Source: Candidatus Heimdallarchaeota archaeon (lineage in GTDB: Archaea > Asgardarchaeota > Heimdallarchaeia > Heimdallarchaeales > Heimdallarchaeaceae). Taken from it: 21,747 nt of DNA. The stretch is taken from contig JABCTC010000052.1 of NCBI GenBank assembly GCA_018238545.1, positions 1 to 21,747 of the forward strand. The letters are read 5' to 3'. Below the pieces are notes generated by a model that saw only the letters and a list, made by a program, of their open reading frames with translations, was not told the origin of the DNA and did not search any database. Positions 977 to 19,416 of this stretch are shown here, in pieces (the first letter of the stretch is position 1; each line of letters starts with the position of its first letter). The position numbers were made by a program, and so were the translations under genes.

Positions 977-2425
977 TTACAAATTCAATAATTTGTGAAA
1001 ATCTATCTTTTCATACTTCATTATATCTATCAGATTTTCAATATCATCTTTTTCAAGAGCTGCTCCAGGATATTTAGAAAGTAATTTTTCTACTCTTTCT
1101 TTTGTTCTTTGTCCAGTAGATTTTCTCCCCTTGTTTATCCATTCTTCATTTGTTGACCGATCAACAACAGTACTTGGCAAATAAAGTTCTTCTCTGAACC
1201 ACTTCAGTGTATGGTCGTGTGATAATAAATGTGTTTTCTTATCGAATTCCTTGAGTAAGTTCTTTGCTATTGGTTCATCTCTTTGTGTGATTCCTTTAAC
1301 GAATTTATAGGTCATTCCTGCGATTTCATTGTCGATTACCACTTTTTGAATACTTTGTGTTGATTCAAAGTTCATCATTCCTGCACCAGAAATCATATTA
1401 ACGCCTTTTATACCAGCCAAAAGAGATCCCATTCCTGTTTCAAACCCTGCTTGACTATCCAAAATTTTAGCATCTGACATTCCTAGATATGCATGTGTAG
1501 GTAGATTGAGATATTTACCAATTTCTACATACCCTAAATCCATGAGGATTGTATCAACCGAAGCTAAGTACATTGTCCCTTTTCTCATATCAAATGCTGC
1601 TGGTGAACCACCCCAAATTACTGGAGCACCAGGAGATACAATCTGAGTAATTACCAATCCTGCTAATGTTTCTGCTGCATGTTGAACGATCGAACCAAGT
1701 ATAGTCACTGGAGCAGTTGCACCAGTCATCGGCATAGAAACAAACTCAGATGGGATACCATATTTTGCACAATCAATTATGCTCTGACATGTTAAATCAC
1801 TCCATTTGAGTGGTGGAGATGGACATGCATCAAATATCGCCAAGGGTTTCCTCCTTAATTCTTCCTCACTTCCTCTTACAGTTACAAGCATATCCTTCAT
1901 CACTTCGAAAGATTCCTTGACGAATGTTCCTGTTACTATTGGTTTCTTTGAGTAAATCAATGCGATTAATAACCTATACCTATCACTAATCTTTTCAGGA
2001 ACATCTGAACAAGTTATAGCCGTACTTTGTGCGTGAATGTGTTCTAGTTGGTCAACTACTTTGGTAAAATCAACGAAATCTTTTGTAATTGCTGCTCTAA
2101 TCTCATTAGTTTCTTTGTCTAACACATTTAGTGCAGCTGAACCAGGATCAAAACAAATGTTATCTCCCCCGAGTTCTGATACTAAATCTCCTTCTCGATT
2201 GTAGAGGGAGATTGATTGAGGAGCTGTTTTAAGAGATTTCTTTACCAAGTCTCTTGGGATGAAAGCTTTCTGAGTCTCTGTATCTACATTGATACCTGCA
2301 TTCTGTAATATATCTACAGCTTCATTGTTTTCAACAAAGAATCCTATTTCTTCTAATATTTCCATTGCTTCTAGAACAACTTTCTCTTTCATATCTTCCT
2401 CAAGAATCTTGATAATTGGTCTCAT
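977..2425 (-). CDS. mttB: Trimethylamine methyltransferase (MttB) superfamily protein, non-pyrrolysine type (MtgB-like quaternary-amine:corrinoid methyltransferase)
   Basis: 482 aa with family motifs CPSPPLKW, MPMTGATAPVT, SDAKILDSQAGFE, GAGMMNFESTQSIQKVVIDNE. The residue before SDAK (Pyl in Methanosarcina MttB) is Met, and there is no in-frame TAG. Confidence 0.9.
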   Translation of the reverse strand: MRPIIKILEEDMKEKVVLEAMEILEEIGFFVENNEAVDILQNAGINVDTETQKAFIPRDLVKKSLKTAPQSISLYNREGDLVSELGGDNICFDPGSAALNVLDKETNEIRAAITKDFVDFTKVVDQLEHIHAQSTAITCSDVPEKISDRYRLLIALIYSKKPIVTGTFVKESFEVMKDMLVTVRGSEEELRRKPLAIFDACPSPPLKWSDLTCQSIIDCAKYGIPSEFVSMPMTGATAPVTILGSIVQHAAETLAGLVITQIVSPGAPVIWGGSPAAFDMRKGTMYLASVDTILMDLGYVEIGKYLNLPTHAYLGMSDAKILDSQAGFETGMGSLLAGIKGVNMISGAGMMNFESTQSIQKVVIDNEIAGMTYKFVKGITQRDEPIAKNLLKEFDKKTHLLSHDHTLKWFREELYLPSTVVDRSTNEEWINKGRKSTGQRTKERVEKLLSKYPGAALEKDDIENLIDIMKYEKIDFHKLLNL

Positions 2426-2515
2426 AATGTGTTCCTTTTCCGTAACTTCATACTTACTTATTCATAGAAGAATAAAAGTGTTATTTGAAGAACTTCAACT
2501 ATTTAAGATACTTTT

Positions 2516-3178
2516 TCAGTTGTCTTTTACTCTCCTATAAGCGCAATTAACCATATCACAGGTTTCGCATCCTCTTTCTCCTAATTCTTGATCAATTTCT
2601 TCCCCTATGTTAACTGCAAAAGAGACTGATTTAATTGGATGCATCATTTTTGAATCACTCAGCGAAACACCAATTTTCTCCGTACTTACTAAATTAAATA
2701 TCATTTCTTGACCTTTGTCTAATTCCCATTGACAATAACCAGGACTAAATCTAGAGGTAACTAATTTTTCCGCAATTTCATCCTTTAAATTCTCTAGAAT
2801 TATCCTATTTACGCATTCTGCGGTTTTTTCAGCTGCATGAGATGCTATAGCATCAATAATAACTCCCTTGGATAATTCACCTCTGGAAATGAATTGGGAA
2901 CCTCTTACTTCCAGTGCCTTCCCAATTGTACACACTGCTAAAACAGTTTTTTCTGATTTTTTGAAAAGGAAAGCTGGTTTTAGTGATGCACTCTCAAAGA
3001 CATCATAAATCCCCATGGGTTGAATTATCTCCAGTGATTCTATTGTCGTTTCACGAATTTGTTCAAGCAAAATGTTGGATATTTTTTTTTGTCTCTTCCG
3101 ATTTCCTTTACTACTGCTAAGCAGTCTCAGAATTTCCCTTTCATCAAGTTCAATTTGGATGTTATCAATTAGTTTCAC
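2516..3178 (-). CDS. Stand-alone B12-dependent methionine synthase activation-domain protein
   Basis: Motifs AVCTIG, IDAIASHAAE, RFSPGY, M(M)HPIKSVS and a C-terminal CETCDMVNC. The GTG start overlaps the upstream TGA (GTGA, 3175-3178). Confidence 0.85.
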   Translation of the reverse strand: MKLIDNIQIELDEREILRLLSSSKGNRKRQKKISNILLEQIRETTIESLEIIQPMGIYDVFESASLKPAFLFKKSEKTVLAVCTIGKALEVRGSQFISRGELSKGVIIDAIASHAAEKTAECVNRIILENLKDEIAEKLVTSRFSPGYCQWELDKGQEMIFNLVSTEKIGVSLSDSKMMHPIKSVSFAVNIGEEIDQELGERGCETCDMVNCAYRRVKDN

Positions 3179-4068
3179 TTTTTCTCCCTCTTAATTTGAT
3201 TTGATATCTCATTAATGAACTTAGGATTTGAACCACAACATCCTCCAACAATTGTAGCTCCATTTTTTATCATTTGTTGGATGTCACGAGTAAATTCATC
3301 AGGTTTTGATAAATAGATAGTTTTGCCTTCAACTAATTGAGGTTGTCCTGCATTAGGTTTTGCTATTATTGGGAGATCAGTGCTATTTGCAATTAGAGGA
3401 ATAAGATCTACCATCTCTTCACTACTTATAGTGCAATTTGCGCCTATTGCATCAGCACCTGCTTCTTCTAACACTTCTGAGCATTGCTCAATAGAGTTAC
3501 CCATAATTGTGAAGAACCCTCGCTTGGTTTTTTTGTAAGTTATCGATGCAAAAATAGGGGTGTTTGAAACTCTCTTGGCAGCTTTAACCGCTATCTCTGC
3601 TTCTTTGAGATCTACCATGGTTTCTATGAAAAAGAGGTCTACATCAGCTTCTGCAAGAATCGTTGTTTGCTCAATGAAACTTTCTATTAATTCCTGTTCA
3701 GTTATTGAACCAACGGGTGGTAGGAATTTTCCTGAAGGACCAATATCTCCTGCAATGTAGCCATTAGGGGGGCAAATCTCTTTAGCCAGCTCCACAGCTC
3801 TTGTATTATACTCTTTGACTTTATCTCCATGTCCATGAGCTTCTAATTTTAATCTTGAACCTCCGAAAGTGTTAGTAAGCACGATGTCTGAACCAGCACT
3901 AAAATATTCTAAGTGAATTTGTTTTATTTTTTCAGGTTGAGTTATGTTCCAGCTTTCTGGTGGTGTTCCAGGTTGTAACCCTAAATCTATAAGTCTTGAA
4001 CCCATCGCTCCATCTAGAATTACAAAACGTTCTGCAACTAATTCAAGAATTGGTTTCTTTAAGCTCAG
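3175..4068 (-). CDS. Homocysteine S-methyltransferase domain protein (split MetH-type)
   Basis: The conserved N-terminal ILDGAMGS motif begins upstream of the ORF-track start (4005). Also TNTFGG, GDIGPSG, IETM and Zn ligands GANC and GGCCG. Proposed CTG start at 4068, 6 nt after GGAGGT. Confidence 0.88.
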   Translation of the reverse strand: MSLKKPILELVAERFVILDGAMGSRLIDLGLQPGTPPESWNITQPEKIKQIHLEYFSAGSDIVLTNTFGGSRLKLEAHGHGDKVKEYNTRAVELAKEICPPNGYIAGDIGPSGKFLPPVGSITEQELIESFIEQTTILAEADVDLFFIETMVDLKEAEIAVKAAKRVSNTPIFASITYKKTKRGFFTIMGNSIEQCSEVLEEAGADAIGANCTISSEEMVDLIPLIANSTDLPIIAKPNAGQPQLVEGKTIYLSKPDEFTRDIQQMIKNGATIVGGCCGSNPKFINEISNQIKREKK

Positions 4069-4083
4069 ATGAATACCTCCTCG

Positions 4084-4716
4084 CTACTCCAATAGTTTTT
4101 TAGCTAGTTTAACTGCACTAACGGCATTTTCAGCGCTACCATCTGCTCCTATCTCCTCAACCCATTTTCTAGAAACAGGCGCGCCTCCAATAAGAATTTT
4201 GTATTTGTTTCTTATTTTTCTTTCTTTTAAGTTGTCAATCAATCTTTTTTGACCTACCATAGTCGTAGTAAGAAGTGCAGATATACAGATTAATTGTGCT
4301 CCTACTTCTTCTGCTTTATCAATGAATTTATCCACAGGGACGTCTGCTCCTAAATCAAATACCTCAAATCCTTCTGCAGACATAATAGCAGCAACTAGTG
4401 TCTTTCCGATGTCGTGAATGTCTCCTTCTATGGTCCCAATTACAACTTTGCCTAGATATCTATCTTCCTTATTTTCCATTATCTTGGGTTCAAGGATGGT
4501 CATCGCTGCTTTCATAGCTTCTGCGCTGCGCATAAGTTCAGGAAGAAAAAACTCTCCTTCTTCAAATAAATCTCCAGCTTCTCTTATAGCTTCTGAAAAT
4601 TGATCGATAACTAGGTTGATTTCAAGATTATCGTTAATTGCCTTACTTGCAAGAGATTCAGCTAGTGAGATGTTACCATTTAGTATAGCTTCTTTGTATT
4701 CTTTTTCTATGATCAA
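4084..4716 (-). CDS. Methyltransferase cognate corrinoid (B12-binding) protein, MttC/MtgC-like
   Basis: GDIHDIGK (DxHxxG cobalamin motif), DLGADVP, SALLTTTM, IGGAPV and cap-domain FFLPEL. Likely TTG start at 4716 after GGTGG (alternative 4728). Confidence 0.92.
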   Translation of the reverse strand: MIIEKEYKEAILNGNISLAESLASKAINDNLEINLVIDQFSEAIREAGDLFEEGEFFLPELMRSAEAMKAAMTILEPKIMENKEDRYLGKVVIGTIEGDIHDIGKTLVAAIMSAEGFEVFDLGADVPVDKFIDKAEEVGAQLICISALLTTTMVGQKRLIDNLKERKIRNKYKILIGGAPVSRKWVEEIGADGSAENAVSAVKLAKKLLE

Positions 4717-4814
4717 AATAACCACCAAGGAGTTACTAATATAGACAATCTACATGTTATTTAAATCATTTCTGAGGAAAATGCTAAAATAATTTCACAA
4801 AAAACTTGACTTTT

Positions 4815-7225: not shown

Positions 7226-8092
7226 GTGATGACTATGAATGATGAAAAGAAGAAAAGCCCAGGAAGACCAAGAAAATATGATACTAACGCAGAGCGAAAA
7301 AAGGCCTATCGTGAGCGTAAGAAAGAAGCTCATAGCAATTTGGAAGAACGGGCAAAAAGAATCACAGAATTAAAAGGAAGAATTGATAATATGGAAAGAA
7401 AATTAGTGAAATCGACTTACACAGATCAACATGTACCTGAAGAAATTTCAGAAGTCCATGAACAAATTAAAGATCGTTCTAGGAAATATGCTCCTTCAGA
7501 GCTAATGGATTTAGAAATTCATGAGCTTAAACGTATACAATCTGGTATTTACTCTAGATATCATGGAAGCTTCTACAACCCTCTACGTGCAGCGCTTGAA
7601 AGTGCTATAATGCCATCGGTTGACAAAGAATTTGATTCTAGAAAACAGAGTTTAGGAGAAAAACCTTACGAAGTTGTAGTTAAAGAAAAATTAGCTAAAT
7701 CGAGTGATGAAGTTACCCCGAAAACAGATATGAAAACAGAAGAATATATACAGAAAGCTAAGGAAAAAGGTTTAGAGGTTTCTGATGAGGATTTATTTGT
7801 TAAACCATCTACGATGGAGAAGAAAAATATAACGAGTCCCAAGCACTGGAAATATTTGAAAGATATATATAGGACAGATCAATTATTCGAGGTCTTTCAA
7901 GAACTGATACTTCTCTATACAGTAGAAGCAGAAATATCTAGACGAGAAAGAGAAGTTGTTCAATCTATGGATATCGAGAGATTAGAGAAAAAACAAATTG
8001 AACTTGAAAAAATCATGAAAGATGATACACTTAGACATGTAAAATCCACTGTGAACAAGATGAAAGCAAAAAAGAAAAGTGATAAAAAATGA
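7226..8092 (+). CDS. Putative DNA-binding coiled-coil protein (GRPRK motif plus bZIP-like basic region and zipper)
   Basis: PGRPRKY, then N21-x7-R29-x9-L39-x6-I46-x6-I53-x6-L60. Highly charged helical remainder with a second heptad region and a basic tail. Start could be 7226, 7229 or 7235. Confidence 0.75.
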   Translation: MMTMNDEKKKSPGRPRKYDTNAERKKAYRERKKEAHSNLEERAKRITELKGRIDNMERKLVKSTYTDQHVPEEISEVHEQIKDRSRKYAPSELMDLEIHELKRIQSGIYSRYHGSFYNPLRAALESAIMPSVDKEFDSRKQSLGEKPYEVVVKEKLAKSSDEVTPKTDMKTEEYIQKAKEKGLEVSDEDLFVKPSTMEKKNITSPKHWKYLKDIYRTDQLFEVFQELILLYTVEAEISRREREVVQSMDIERLEKKQIELEKIMKDDTLRHVKSTVNKMKAKKKSDKK

Positions 8093-8171: not shown

Positions 8172-9308
8172 TTGTCGGACGAACTTCATACCAAGCCTCT
8201 GGTCTTAGATAACGGAACTGGATATACTAAAATAGGTTTCGCTGGTGAAGATCAACCAAGAAGTGTTTTTCCAACTCTGATAGGTTATCCTAAAAACCCA
8301 ATAGTTATGCCTGATGTAGAAGCCTACTTCAGAGAATACTATATTGGTGAAGAAGCTATGAACTTACGAGGTGTTCTCAAACTTCAGTATCCAATGGAGC
8401 ATGGACAAGTTAAGGACTGGCAAGCAATGGAACGAATCTGGCATTATATTTATTATAATGACTTAAGAGTTAATCCAAATGAGCACCCAGTAATGTTAAC
8501 TGAACCACCTTTAAACGATAAAAAAAACAAGGAGAAGATGGCCGAGTTAATGTTTGAACAATTTAACGTTCCAGCCATGTATGTCTCCATGCAAGCAATA
8601 TTGTCTCTATATGCTTCTGGTAGGACAACTGGACTTGTTATAGATGCAGGTGATGGTGTAATTCATATCGTTCCAGTTTACGAAGGTTTTGCTATTTCTC
8701 ATGCGATACATCGTTCAGATATTGGTGGGCGAGATATTACTAACTATCTTAGAACCCTTTTGAAACAACGTGGGTATTCATTGACAACCAGTGCTGAGAA
8801 AGAAATCGTTAGAGATATCAAGGAACGACTCTGTTACATAGCTCTTGATCCAGAAAAAGAATTGAAGCTTGCAGAAAAAGTTTCAGGAATGGAGAAAGAT
8901 TATACCATGCCTGATGGCGAGGTTATCAACATAGGATCAGAACGTTTCATGGCTCCAGAACTGCTCTTTAGTCCAGGTGTTATTGGTTCTGAGGAAGAAC
9001 CGTTGGATGAACTAATTTATAGAATGGTACAGAATTGTGATGTAGATCTACGTCGAGATTTGTTTTCAAATATTGTACTTTCTGGTGGTTCAACAATGTT
9101 TCCAGGACTTAAAGAACGACTACATAAGGAATTAGTAGAGCTTGTTCCTGATACAACTGAAGTGAAGATAATCTCTCCTCCGGAACGAAGATACTCCGTA
9201 TGGATAGGCGGAAGTATTCTCAGTTCTCTTAAAACATTCAAGAAATTATGGGTAACAAAAAAAGAATATAAGGAGAATGGTCCTTCAGCTGTTTATCGTT
9301 GTATCTAA
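8172..9308 (+). CDS. Actin, Lokiactin/Asgard conserved-actin type
   Basis: 378 aa with DNGTG, GFAGEDQPRSVFP, YPMEHG, LTEPPLN, LSLYASGRTTG, DAGDG, TTSAEKEIVRDIKE, LSGGSTMFPG, PPERRYSVWIGGSIL and C-terminal RCI. Confidence 0.97.
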   Translation: MSDELHTKPLVLDNGTGYTKIGFAGEDQPRSVFPTLIGYPKNPIVMPDVEAYFREYYIGEEAMNLRGVLKLQYPMEHGQVKDWQAMERIWHYIYYNDLRVNPNEHPVMLTEPPLNDKKNKEKMAELMFEQFNVPAMYVSMQAILSLYASGRTTGLVIDAGDGVIHIVPVYEGFAISHAIHRSDIGGRDITNYLRTLLKQRGYSLTTSAEKEIVRDIKERLCYIALDPEKELKLAEKVSGMEKDYTMPDGEVINIGSERFMAPELLFSPGVIGSEEEPLDELIYRMVQNCDVDLRRDLFSNIVLSGGSTMFPGLKERLHKELVELVPDTTEVKIISPPERRYSVWIGGSILSSLKTFKKLWVTKKEYKENGPSAVYRCI

Positions 9309-12665: not shown

Positions 12666-13858
12666 ATGAAAAAGACAAGTAAAATGGGATTAAGTATTGG
12701 GTTTTTCCTGATACTGTTAAGTTTAGGTTTGATTTCAAATTCACACGTTACATTCTCGCAACAAAACGATTCTATAACACAAATCACAATTGAAGATTTA
12801 ATTGAGATACCAGAGATAATGATATCACACGACGATAATTTCACAGATTACACTACTTCAGGCGTTGGAACCCCAGAAGATCCTTATGTAATAGAAAACT
12901 ATAACATAACAAGTGGAGGTCCATGGGGGATATTAATCAATGGAACAGAAAGCGGTCAAATAAGTGTTAATTTCATAATAAGAAATTGTTGGATAACAGC
13001 AATTGATGTTTGTATACTAATAATAGATGCTTATCCAAATTTAGTAACTATAGATAATTGTACATGTGTTAACACATTAGGTGGAGATGGGTTAGGAATT
13101 TACTTAGTTAACTGTGATGGTGCAACAATAATAAACTGTAAATGTTTGAATAATTTACATGGAGGAATGCGTTTAGACCTATCAGATAGTCTTTGGATAG
13201 AAAATAATACTTGCTCTTCTAATGGGGGTGAAGGAATATTCATTGACAATGCATCCGAATTCTGCTTAATCTTGAATAATACCTGTTTGTTAAATGTACA
13301 ATGGGGTATTACTAATCAATTTTCTAATGATAATACTTTCAGATATAATAACTGTTCAAACAACATAGTTACAGGTTAGTTACAGGTTTTGGTATATATT
13401 ACTCTGATAGGACAATTCTGGAAAATAATACAGCTTCATCAAACGGTATCTATGGTATGCATGTTTTGTCTTCTGGTTATGTTGACATTATATTCAACCA
13501 GTTAAAAGATAATGCGTGGTATGGAGTATACAAGGATTCTGGTTCTCCTTATAATAGAATACATCACAATAACTTCATTGGAAACAACGATGGACTTGGA
13601 CAACAAGCTTACGAAAGCGGTCTATTAACTTCCCAAAATGCAACATGGTACGACATAGGAACAAATGAAGGAAATTACTGGAATGACTACATTAGTGGTC
13701 CTTACTCTATAGATGGCACTGCATTGAACAGTGATCCTTACCCTATAGGTTCTCCAGTAGGTATAGAATTTATATCAGAATATGCAAGTAGTATCCTTTC
13801 AATCATCTTGCTAATATCATTTATAGGTACTATAAGTTTTGTAATTAGAAAGAAGTAA
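12666..13858 (+). pseudogene. Frameshifted NosD/right-handed beta-helix surface protein with C-terminal TM anchor
   Basis: GGTGA then ATG 12666, signal peptide, GxGTPEDPYVIENYNI, NNT/NN repeats, GNYWNDY...DPYP and TM+RKK. An 11-bp tandem duplication at 13366-13387 splits the gene. Confidence 0.85.
13366..13387 (+). repeat. Perfect 11-bp tandem duplication TAGTTACAGGT x2
   Basis: Copies at 13366-13376 and 13377-13387. The second copy supplies the TAG stop. Confidence 0.95.
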
Positions 13859-13932
13859 GTTACCTTTCCCTTTTTTCCTTTTTTATCTAAATACTAAAGA
13901 TTTATTATTCTTTTAGCAACAAGAAACTTAGT

Positions 13933-15876
13933 ATGAGTTCAATTGAAGAAATCTGCGAAAAATACGCTGTTCAAAATGCTTTAGAGCATGGAGAAGCAAA
14001 AATTACCCCAGTAATGAGAATAATAATGGTTGCTCATCCTGAATTACGCAAGGATGTTAATAGTGTAAAAATTATCGCTCAACAGAAGATAGATTACATT
14101 AATTCTTTGGAAATCGCAGAAATACAAAAATTGGCTCAAACAAAGTATACTGAACTTCTAAAAGAAGTAACCGATGATAAAGAACCCGTAGAAGGTCTTA
14201 ACTTCATAAGAACAATTATAGAAGAGCACAATAGGACAGGTAGATTCGGTGGTAAAGTTCATACGAGATTTCCTCCTGAACCAAATGGTTGGTTACATAT
14301 AGGTCATGCCTGTTCAATCTTGATGAACCATAAAATTGCCATGGATTATGACGGAATTTTTAATTTCCGGTTTGATGATACAAATCCCATAACAGAAGAA
14401 GAATCATATGTTAATGCAATGATTGAGGATATTAAGTGGTTAGGAGTATACAAGGAATATGAAAATGGAAGTAATAATATCTTCTTTGGATCAGGTTATT
14501 TTGATCAGTTCTATGAATACGCTGAACAATTAGTTGAGAAAGGTTTAGCTTATGTTGATGATTCTAGTGCTGAAGAAATCAAGGAACAACGTGGATCAAT
14601 AACAGAACTCGGAACAGAAAGTCCTTACAGAACTAGAACAATTGAAGAGAACATTGATTTGTTCAAAAGAATGAAAAAATGTGAGTTCCCAAATGGATCT
14701 AAGGTTCTAAGAGCCAAATTAGACATGTCACATCCAAACCTACTCATGCGAGACCCTATCATTTATCGGATACTTCATACTCCCCATCATAATACAGGAG
14801 ATAAATGGTGCATCTATCCTATGTACGATTGGGCACATGGTTTAGAGGATTCTATAGAAGGAATCACACAATCTATCTGCACTTTAGAGTTTGAAGTTCA
14901 CAGACCATTATACGATTGGTTTCTAAACCAATTAACTGACGAGGAAGGTAAACCTATCTTTCATCCTCAGCAAATAGAATTTGCAAAAGTTAATCTTTCA
15001 CATACAGTTTTGGGTAAGCGTGTGATGATCCAATTAGTAAAAGATAAACATGTGAACGGTTGGGATGATCCTAGGATGCTAACAATTGCAGGACTAAGAA
15101 GAAGAGGGGTAACAGCCGAAGCGCTAAGAAAATTCATGGAGACAATAGGTGTATCAAAAAGAGATAAAATTATTGACCAATCTATACTAGATTACTGTAT
15201 CAGAGAAGATTTGAACAATAGATGTCCCAGAGTAATGAGTGTTCTTAAACCTCTAAAGGTTGTTATAACCAACTATTCAGCTGAAAAGAAGGAAGAGCTA
15301 GAAGTTCAAAATCATCCTACTATTAAGGAAATGGGGGCAAGAAAAATTATTTTTTCCAAAACCCTCTATATCGAACAAGATGATTTTATGGAAAATCCTC
15401 CTGAGGACTATTATAGACTTTCGCCTGGTGAAAAAGTTAGATTGAAAAACGCCTACATTATCAAATGTGAGAATGTTATCAAAGATGAAAAAACAGGTGA
15501 GATTAGTGAACTACATTGTTCTTATGAACCTAGACCAGCAGATAGTGCTTCAGATGATTCTAAAGTTAGAGGCACCATACACTGGATTTCAGCTGAAAAT
15601 AGTATAATCGCAGAAGTAAGATTAATTGATAGACTTTTCTTAAAAGAAAATCCAATGGAAACTGAAGAAGGAAAGGTTTTCGCAGATTACATAAACCCAC
15701 AATCACTGGAAATTACAGAAGCACTTGTTGAATCATTCCTGAAGGATGCTAAATTAGGATCAAGATTTCAGTTTGAGAGATTGGGCTATTTCTATCTAGA
15801 ACCAATTGATTCAACAGAAAATAATCTTGTCTTCAACAGAATTATCTCATTGAGAGATTCATGGTCAAAAAGATAG
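13933..15876 (+). CDS. glnS: Glutaminyl-tRNA synthetase with archaeal GluRS-type N-terminal domain
   Basis: NFIRTII, VHTRFPPEPNGWLHIGH, RFDDTNP, WCIYPMYD, SICTLEF, GWDDPRMLTIAGLRRRG, GTIHWIS, FQFERLGYF and FNRIISLRDSW, all typical of bacterial GlnRS. Confidence 0.92.
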   Translation: MSSIEEICEKYAVQNALEHGEAKITPVMRIIMVAHPELRKDVNSVKIIAQQKIDYINSLEIAEIQKLAQTKYTELLKEVTDDKEPVEGLNFIRTIIEEHNRTGRFGGKVHTRFPPEPNGWLHIGHACSILMNHKIAMDYDGIFNFRFDDTNPITEEESYVNAMIEDIKWLGVYKEYENGSNNIFFGSGYFDQFYEYAEQLVEKGLAYVDDSSAEEIKEQRGSITELGTESPYRTRTIEENIDLFKRMKKCEFPNGSKVLRAKLDMSHPNLLMRDPIIYRILHTPHHNTGDKWCIYPMYDWAHGLEDSIEGITQSICTLEFEVHRPLYDWFLNQLTDEEGKPIFHPQQIEFAKVNLSHTVLGKRVMIQLVKDKHVNGWDDPRMLTIAGLRRRGVTAEALRKFMETIGVSKRDKIIDQSILDYCIREDLNNRCPRVMSVLKPLKVVITNYSAEKKEELEVQNHPTIKEMGARKIIFSKTLYIEQDDFMENPPEDYYRLSPGEKVRLKNAYIIKCENVIKDEKTGEISELHCSYEPRPADSASDDSKVRGTIHWISAENSIIAEVRLIDRLFLKENPMETEEGKVFADYINPQSLEITEALVESFLKDAKLGSRFQFERLGYFYLEPIDSTENNLVFNRIISLRDSWSKR

Positions 15877-15960: not shown

Positions 15961-16065
15961 AGTCCCGTAGTGTAGCGGCAATCATTCCGGACTTTGAATC
16001 CGGCGACCGGGGTTCGAGAGAGTTCTTCCTGTTGGAAAATTCCGAATTTCCCCTCGGGACTACCA
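15961..16065 (+). tRNA. tRNA-Gln(UUG) with 30-nt intron at position 59/60 (intron 16019-16048)
   Basis: Acceptor AGTCCCG/CGGGACT, anticodon stem CCGGA/TCCGG, anticodon TTG at 15994-15996 and encoded CCA. A bulge-helix-bulge motif sits in the T-loop. Confidence 0.93.
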
Positions 16066-16076
16066 CTTTTCTTCTT

Positions 16077-19340: not shown

Positions 19341-19416
19341 AGCTCCGTAGTCTAGCGGTCAAGGATACGGGACTCTGAATCCTGAGACGGGTGTTCAAAT
19401 CACCCCGGGGCTACCA
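19341..19416 (+). tRNA. tRNA-Gln(CUG)
   Basis: Acceptor AGCTCCG/CGGGGCT, anticodon CTG at 19375-19377, T-arm GGGTG-TTCAAAT-CACCC and encoded CCA. Confidence 0.95.

Follow-up and report, generated by a model that had tools for sequence, protein, structure and literature searches.

A chimeric glutaminyl-tRNA synthetase with an archaeal GluRS-type N-terminal domain and linked tRNA-Gln genes in Heimdall archaea

The stretch of DNA analysed here (the window) is the whole 21,747-bp contig JABCTC010000052.1 of a Candidatus Heimdallarchaeota genome (GCA_018238545.1; 3.63 Mb in 128 contigs, with an estimated completeness of 92% and an estimated contamination of 4.2%). It carries a gene, glnS, for a glutaminyl-tRNA synthetase (GlnRS) in which a bacterial-type core is preceded by a helical domain of the kind found at the N-terminus of archaeal glutamyl-tRNA synthetase (GluRS), and two tRNA-Gln genes lie downstream of it (Table 1).

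Table 1. Features of the glnS region in window coordinates (pLDDT, predicted local distance difference test)
Feature	Position	Strand	Support
Chimeric GlnRS gene, 647 residues, ATG start	13933..15876 (stop codon included)	+	TIGR00440 (NCBIfam glnS), 643 bits against a cut-off of 425.8 (residues 109-646; model positions 1-524 of 524); ~1e-178 to E. coli and P. aeruginosa GlnRS
N-terminal four-helix domain, residues 1-75	13933..14157	+	Homology to archaeal GluRS N-domain; helices in AlphaFold2 model
Acidic linker, predicted flexible, residues 76-88, LKEVTDDKEPVEG	14158..14196	+	Low pLDDT; length and sequence vary among relatives
Bacterial-type GlnRS core, residues 89-647	14197..15873	+	NFIR... 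N-terminal helix; Rossmann catalytic domain, residues 108-428 (Pfam tRNA-synt_1c); two beta-barrel anticodon-binding domains, residues 431-622 (Pfam tRNA-synt_1c_C and tRNA-synt_1c_C2 at 431-532 and 548-622)
tRNA-Gln(UUG) with 30-nt T-loop intron at 16019-16048	15961..16065	+	75-nt tRNA-Gln(ttg) by ARAGORN once the intron is removed
tRNA-Gln(CUG)	19341..19416	+	A1:U72, G2:C71, C3:G70, A73, encoded CCA

Judged from its sequence, the open reading frame encodes a full, glutamine-type GlnRS, for which glutamine charging is predicted. The protein matched the NCBIfam glnS model over its entire length, while the archaeal GluRS models stayed under their cut-offs (TIGR00463, 356 versus 401.75 bits; PRK04156, 337.5 versus 516 bits); the TIGR00463 alignment begins at residue 5. 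In phmmer searches against the PDB, the GlnRS of P. aeruginosa and E. coli came first (599 bits for the bacterial enzymes), followed by eukaryotic GlnRS at about 400 bits (401) and the archaeal GluRS 3AII at 187 bits. The alignment with 3AII starts at residue 3, and those with the bacterial enzymes start at query residues 86-89 and chain residues 8-15, in agreement with the original prediction that co-linearity with E. coli GlnRS sets in at about residue 89 (NFIRTII). The best NCBIfam score (788 bits) belonged to NF011291, 'GlnRS/YqeY domain fusion', but the match covers only model positions 9-558 of 769, and there is no C-terminal YqeY domain, the protein ending 25 residues past its last Pfam domain. 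By its domain content the enzyme is a member of the GlnRS family and not of the GlnRS/YqeY C-terminal fusion family, and the database name 'GlnRS/YqeY fusion' given to one relative is misleading.

Specificity residues were read from an alignment of E. coli K-12 GlnS (NC_000913.3), the window protein, 30 other Heimdall copies and the genome's own GluRS. R30, D66, Y211, H215, S227, C229, F233, Q255 and K270 (E. coli numbering) are identical in all 31 Heimdall GlnRS, the anticodon (YUG) readers R341, R402, Q517 and R520 are likewise invariant, and a HIGH motif can be read from the translation at residues 122-125. In the genome's own GluRS, position 229 is Arg and position 255 is Phe. The glutamine pocket proposed earlier (R30, Y211, C229, F233 and Q255) was thus recovered in every GlnRS copy compared, and the Arg expected at 229 in GluRS was recovered in that of the same genome. 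The core appears to hold everything needed for glutamine activation and YUG anticodon reading. Two positions vary. That of D235, which in E. coli reads G2:C71 and G3:C70 of the acceptor stem, is Val in the window protein and V, T, I or S across the 31 copies. At that of L136, a residue of the unpairing loop, the window protein has Ile, and I, L, S or V occur among the Heimdall enzymes.

Residues 1-75 are homologous to the archaeal GluRS N-domain, as had been proposed. When residues 1-95 were searched against the PDB, the sole match was to residues 3-70 of Methanothermobacter thermautotrophicus GluRS (3aii; E 5.5e-4), and their identity to the N-terminus of the genome's own GluRS (contig C62) is 37% over 70 residues (E 7e-11). 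Seventeen GlnRS N-domains and 15 Heimdall GluRS N-domains align co-linearly and almost without gaps; N15, G20 and A22 are invariant and A16, P36, E37, N57 and P73 nearly so, and a one-residue deletion in the GlnRS N-domain is held in common with a subset of Heimdall GluRS. The AlphaFold2 model places helices at residues 4-19, 24-34, 36-57 and 61-71 with a pLDDT of 80-97, which drops below 50 for residues 78-89, and the linker between N-domain and core is accordingly modelled as flexible. Foldseek returned nothing from the PDB at E <= 0.001 for the N-domain model, which is in part expected because residues 1-89 of 3AII are absent from the crystal model (PMC2978374). The best hits of a wide VIA-align search with the same model (Z 6.6) were unrelated helical proteins and were set aside.

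Such an architecture could come from a mis-binned bacterial GlnRS contig or from a chimeric join of GluRS and GlnRS sequences, and the contig number and estimated contamination of this assembly would leave room for either. The gene content of the contig, however, marks it as archaeal, with an Asgard actin (Pfam Actin, 445 bits) encoded alongside a RIO kinase and a cluster of corrinoid methyltransferase genes. The composition of glnS is that of its surroundings, with a GC content of 0.347 in both gene and window and a third-position GC content of 0.258, within the 0.229-0.272 of its neighbours, so that the host-like, AT-rich codon usage described in the original prediction holds. One close relative of the GlnRS protein is itself labelled Candidatus Heimdallarchaeota. 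The sequence is present in marine-sediment and cold-seep samples. An independent Logan contig, assembled from a marine-sediment run that may be the source sample itself, matches 13850-15011 without a difference, and Logan contigs of two other studies extend over the N-domain as far as the linker; some Logan runs leave stretches of the gene uncovered, to which no weight is given. The junction is supported most strongly by its recurrence in independently produced assemblies, as it is found in at least 19 others, closed genomes among them, and in proteins from NCBI, ENA and Logan. An artefact of assembly or binning is effectively refuted.

Among 399 Asgard genomes, GlnRS above the cut-off was found in only three families of a single class, that is, in three of the 33 Asgard families sampled. 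These are the family of the window (f1; 20 of 29 genomes), a third Heimdallarchaeia family (f5; 12 of 22) and a family of a different order (f7; 10 of 12), and the gene is missing from all 16 genomes of the three remaining families in the window's order. About 40 genomes have an open glnS frame. The canonical absence of GlnRS from archaea, from which the original prediction started, is the position of reviews up to 2022, according to which GlnRS occurs in no archaeon (PMC9499178, PMC2978374, PMC1865053); it does not extend to these three families. The GlnRS of f1 and f7 is 641-653 residues long and carries the N-domain in at least 19 species-level genomes, two of them closed and in a single contig. 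In contrast, the in-frame open stretch of the f5 enzymes is only 578-602 residues, with a short bacterial-like N-terminus and no N-domain.

A search with residues 1-90 against 5.8 billion proteins (NCBI, ENA and Logan) yielded only five other clusters, all of the same architecture. None of the best 150 cluster representatives aligned to the query upstream of residue 52, and the N-domain is present in none of 78 named bacterial GlnRS relatives; an apparent extension of bacterial tblastn matches into query residues 28-60 proved spurious, the N-termini of those proteins being short. Among the N-domain copies the mean identity is 55% for the N-domain, and core identity within their clade is 63-97%. 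The chimera is real and under selection, and the fusion read from a single contig in the original prediction is a feature shared across species.

The two tRNA-Gln genes of the window, which the original prediction did not mention, are directly relevant to the mechanism. That for tRNA-Gln(UUG) begins 85 nt 3' of the GlnRS stop codon and has A1:U72, G2:C71, U3:A70, A73 and an encoded CCA; default ARAGORN and Rfam missed it because of the 30-nt intron in its T-loop. The tRNA-Gln(CUG) gene, 3.5 kb downstream of glnS, was found by both programs. A third tRNA-Gln copy was not found in the 92%-complete genome, and both detected copies are linked to glnS. Two other ARAGORN calls in this genome, 'tRNA-Stop(tta)' and 'tRNA-SeC', turned out to be mis-predicted introns and not suppressors.

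The linkage of glnS to tRNA-Gln (0.1-5.6 kb) recurs in f1, f5 and f7, and the discriminator base differs among these families. In f5, whose GlnRS has no N-domain, all linked tRNA-Gln genes have G73, the identity element used in bacteria, and most have no encoded CCA, while in two closed f5 genomes an extra, unlinked and intron-bearing tRNA-Gln(CUG) retains A73. The tRNA-Gln genes of f7, f1g2 and f1g3 have A73, as do those of f3, which has no GlnRS. Within the genus of the window, A73 is constant in the UUG isoacceptor, while the CUG isoacceptor differs between species, some having A73 and others G73. Position 3:70 is variable in Heimdall tRNA-Gln, alongside the replacement of D235 in all 31 enzymes compared. 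The acceptor end of these tRNAs (A73, variable 3:70) differs from that of bacterial systems, and the loss of D235 seems to correspond to it.

Several further observations concern this tRNA region. In relatives (L029, L039, L050) tRNA-Gln(UUG) has canonical or other introns. In several species of the same genus (L026, 1168-1242(-); L032, 1132-1206(-); L036; L060-L062), though not in the genome of the window, an odd conserved tRNA gene adjoins tRNA-Gln(UUG) downstream of glnS. Its body resembles that of tRNA-Gln and is followed by A73-CCA, its anticodon loop is 6 nt long (UUUAGG), and ARAGORN lists it as 'tRNA-???'. A related gene, L050 1330-1403(+), is called with anticodon UUA. The odd gene could be a suppressor or a pseudo-tRNA. 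One low-depth DNA contig (run X1) joins position 16018 to 16075, skipping the intron and the 3' part of tRNA-Gln(UUG); its left end (16018) is the 5' intron boundary, and either strain variation or an artefact of the assembly graph may account for the join.

The indirect route to Gln-tRNA is retained beside GlnRS. The original prediction had named gltX, gatD and gatE as genes to look for, and all three are present: the archaeal GluRS scores above its cut-off, and gatD and gatE are adjacent and have open frames. The genome has no GatB; the only matches to TIGR00133 were below threshold and lay on GatE. GatE and archaeal GluRS occur in essentially all genomes of the Heimdall class, with or without GlnRS. 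Since only two tRNA-Gln genes were detected and would have to serve both routes, GlnRS and GluRS/GatDE presumably use the same tRNAs in this organism.

As the GluRS, GatD and GatE route is complete, GlnRS is formally dispensable, and the gene might be a decaying import, a glutamate-charging enzyme or a paralogue with some other role in vivo. This appears scarcely credible, given that the frame stays open across about 40 genomes, that the core is conserved to the degree noted within the N-domain clade, that catalytic, glutamine-pocket and anticodon-reading residues are conserved without exception, and that the linked tRNA-Gln genes have co-evolved, including switches to G73.

The retained genes vary in their own right. 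GatE of f1 (C9:6446-9695 in the window's genome, and its relatives) scores about 375-410 bits on gatE_arch, compared with 560-650 bits where the family lacks GlnRS. Two GatE genes are present in f7 (about 640 and 430 bits), and f5 has GatE forms of about 550 and 335 bits. The low scores may indicate a relaxed or changed constraint on GatDE after the arrival of GlnRS. The f5 genomes have two distinct types of archaeal GluRS (loci L071-L086), one of which (L082-L086) has the N-domain nearest to that of GlnRS, with an identity of 36-39%.

Phylogenetic analysis placed the Heimdall GlnRS within the bacterial-type clade, apart from a separate eukaryotic GlnRS clade, in all three trees built (FastTree with 156 rows; IQ-TREE under LG+C20 with posterior mean site frequencies, 78 rows; FastTree with 133 rows including named GTDB bacteria). 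The N-domain copies of f1 and f7 grouped together, with f7 inside f1, and the f5 copies grouped separately; both clades had 100% support. With dense bacterial sampling, the f1 and f7 copies adjoined sequences of Ignavibacteriota and Bacteroidota (support 89). Core identity (best tblastn segment) reached 52-58% to Ignavibacteriota, Chloroflexota, Planctomycetota, Nitrospirota and others, and about 40-45% to cluster representatives with the eukaryotic architecture. Apicomplexan (Plasmodium, Cryptosporidium) and diplonemid GlnRS also fell in the bacterial-type clade and branched near the Heimdall sequences; all of them are AT-rich, and compositional attraction is a possible cause of this placement.

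The import of the core from bacteria is the most probable, though not a demonstrated, origin. In its favour are the topology of the best trees, core identities that are higher to bacteria, and a scattered occurrence among Asgard families combined with evident lateral movement. The nesting of f7, a family of a different order, within f1 in all trees suggests that the chimeric glnS-tRNA-Gln cassette moved between Heimdall lineages. A single capture of the N-domain, in the common ancestor of the f1 and f7 enzymes, is suggested by the derived position of their clade, the absence of the domain from f5, bacteria and eukaryotes, the lack of profile similarity to the eukaryotic appendage (hhalign probability of 0.1% between the N-domain profile and eukaryotic GlnRS N-terminal regions, no significant match), the deletion shared with some Heimdall GluRS and the evolutionary rates. 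Within families the core has changed more slowly than the N-domain (identity ratios of 0.76 and 0.88), while between GlnRS and GluRS both are 31% identical, some Heimdall GluRS reaching up to 39% for the N-domain against 33% for the core. The N-domain is too short for a decisive tree.

Against the bacterial origin, the support for nesting among bacteria is moderate (Shimodaira-Hasegawa-like values of 81-96), and approximately unbiased (AU) tests, run under LG+F+G4 on two data sets of 50 and 75 rows, did not reject the placement of the Heimdall enzymes as sister to all bacterial-type GlnRS (p 0.46 and 0.60; log-likelihood differences of 3.5-10.5), as sister to eukaryotes (p 0.39 and 0.29) or at the base of all GlnRS (p 0.38 and 0.24). 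The horizontal acquisition put forward in the original prediction thus agrees with the best trees but not to the exclusion of these other placements.

The same AU results would suit a history in which GlnRS arose from an archaeal GluRS duplicate in the stem of Heimdall archaea and eukaryotes, the N-domain was kept in f1 and f7 and was lost or replaced in f5, bacteria and eukaryotes, and bacteria obtained GlnRS from a Heimdall-like archaeon. One maximum-likelihood tree has diplonemid, apicomplexan and Heimdall sequences at the base of the bacterial-type clade, the N-domain and core are equally diverged from GluRS, and losing a redundant GlnRS would be cheap with GatDE and GluRS retained. However, the N-domain forms are a derived subclade and not basal, they adjoin Ignavibacteriota and Bacteroidota once bacteria are sampled more densely, and GlnRS is missing from the other three families of the order and from 30 of the 33 Asgard families. 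The nesting of f7 copies in f1 implies that the gene moves laterally, the eukaryotic N-terminal domain has no detectable profile similarity, and the faster evolution of the domain makes an equal divergence point to a younger junction. This history is considered improbable, and the stronger proposal that the Heimdall enzyme is a surviving early form, derived from a GluRS duplicate before the divergence of eukaryotes, and that a Heimdall-like donor and not eukaryotes gave bacteria their GlnRS, is considered quite improbable.

Under the preferred account, the core would have been acquired by horizontal transfer from bacteria; the ancestor of the f1 and f7 enzymes would then have gained the roughly 75-residue N-domain of a resident archaeal GluRS, tethered to the core by a short flexible linker, and the glnS-tRNA-Gln cassette would subsequently have spread among Heimdall lineages. 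The N-domain would most probably serve as a cis-acting tRNA-binding helper, comparable to the YqeY domain of Deinococcus GlnRS, which is disordered in the crystal and raises the affinity for tRNA-Gln only in cis (PMC1865053). Such a helper could allow a core of a type that ordinarily depends on G73 as the discriminator base to use an archaeal-type tRNA-Gln (A1:U72, A73), and the enzyme would work beside GluRS and GatDE on the same two adjacent tRNA-Gln species. The association of N-less enzymes with G73 tRNAs, and of N-domain enzymes mostly with A73, suggests that the N-domain compensates for weak recognition of the acceptor end of archaeal tRNA-Gln. Taken as a whole, from a working glutamine-specific enzyme with a bacterial-type core to domain capture and a tRNA-helper role, this account is regarded as somewhat probable.

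Several points weigh against the helper role, for which binding of tRNA by the appendage is proposed by analogy only. A tRNA-binding role is not obvious from the sequence, because the N-domain is slightly acidic and the linker acidic by residue count, in contrast to the Lys-rich linker of GluRS. No Pfam family was found on 32 N-domains beyond noise, the YqeY/GatB tail families PF02637 and PF09424 included, and hhalign gave a probability of 1% between the N-domain profile and the C-terminal YqeY domains of bacterial GlnRS. VIA-align superposed the N-domain model on the C-terminal halves of YqeY (1ng6, 8xjg) with a root-mean-square deviation of 2.1-2.2 A over 46-48 residues, but the Z scores of 4.9-5.0 do not exceed the background of small helical domains. 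The link between N-domain and A73 is imperfect, as several species of the window's genus have a G73 CUG isoacceptor despite the N-domain, and the A73/G73 contrast rests on only two independent lineages.

The acidity of the domain and linker would fit a protein-protein or regulatory module of the same origin, for example one docking GlnRS to a GluRS partner such as GatDE. M. thermautotrophicus GluRS and GatDE associate without tRNA (PMC2943598), and GatE is kept in all GlnRS-bearing families and is divergent in f1, the higher range of scores being reached in families without GlnRS and by one f7 copy. The same study assigns the GluRS-GatDE contact to the GatE insertion domain and is silent on the GluRS N-terminus, and the only comparable GlnRS appendages to have been studied experimentally act on tRNA (PMC1865053). 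A docking function is possible but unlikely, and a role as tRNA-binding helper is preferred.

Comparison with known synthetases places the Heimdall enzyme among several combinations of core and appendage. Bacterial GlnRS (E. coli GlnS, 1GTR, 1QTQ and 1O0B; P. aeruginosa, 5BNZ) has the same domain order, is co-linear with it from residue 88/89 to the end and has in common the HIGH motif, K270, the glutamine pocket and the anticodon readers. The Heimdall enzyme differs by the added 75-residue N-domain and linker and by the changes of D235 to Val and L136 to Ile; its tRNAs have A1:U72 and A73 where those of bacteria have U1:A72 and G73, and its archaeal host also keeps GatDE. The GlnRS of Deinococcus radiodurans (2HZ7; NF011291; PMC1865053) likewise joins a core to a flexibly tethered helical appendage related to the indirect Gln-tRNA pathway, but that appendage is C-terminal, about 215 residues long and YqeY/GatB-like, whereas the Heimdall one is N-terminal, 75 residues long and of the archaeal GluRS type.

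Archaeal non-discriminating GluRS (M. thermautotrophicus, 3AII; TIGR00463; PMC2978374) has the homologous N-domain and shares the GlxRS fold with beta-barrel anticodon domains. The Heimdall GlnRS core is about 31% identical to it and has Cys, not Arg, at the position of E. coli 229; it further has the GlnRS-specific N-terminal helix and the G36-reading R402, where the genome's own GluRS has Leu. Eukaryotic GlnRS (human, 4YE6; yeast, 4H3S) also bears an appended N-terminal helical domain, thought to help tRNA binding, but this domain is GatB-like, about 200 residues long and without profile similarity to the Heimdall domain, and the core match is lower than that to bacterial GlnRS by the bit scores given above. 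The parallel drawn in the original prediction with the appended domains of eukaryotic and Deinococcus GlnRS holds as a likeness of architecture, and the N-terminus of archaeal GluRS has itself been called a disordered YQEY domain (Nureki et al. 2010; PMC2978374).

The absence of GlnRS from archaea has been explained by an incompatibility, in that archaeal tRNA-Gln (A1:U72, A73) has co-evolved with GatDE and is unlike the substrates of bacterial and eukaryotic GlnRS (PMC9499178, PMC2978374). The Heimdall lineages are a natural counter-example to this incompatibility. They apparently hold two solutions, one in which an enzyme refitted with a GluRS domain is used with unchanged A73 tRNAs, and one, in f5, in which an unmodified enzyme is used with dedicated G73 copies of tRNA-Gln. 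The incompatibility hypothesis can now be tested directly with four components, the enzyme with and without the N-domain and tRNA with A73 or G73. Direct and indirect Gln-tRNA synthesis coexist here in the archaeal group closest to eukaryotes, a state relevant to the time and place of origin of the direct pathway, and the compact glnS-tRNA-Gln cassette may also be of interest for the engineering of orthogonal translation systems. The literature searched yielded no description of the chimeric architecture, the tRNA linkage or the G73/A73 pattern; the one mention of GlnRS met there is made in passing and places it beside cox genes in Hodarchaeales and Kariarchaeaceae (bioRxiv 10.1101/2024.07.04.601786).

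Elsewhere in the window, the gene at 8172-9308 encodes a bona fide actin, and a gene for a 288-residue charged coiled-coil protein (7226-8092) lies directly upstream of it. The region at 977-4728 includes a gene for an MttB-family methyltransferase, which has no in-frame TAG and yet an Rfam PYLIS_3 match at 1381-1480 (47 bits); it adjoins genes for a homocysteine S-methyltransferase and a B12-binding protein.

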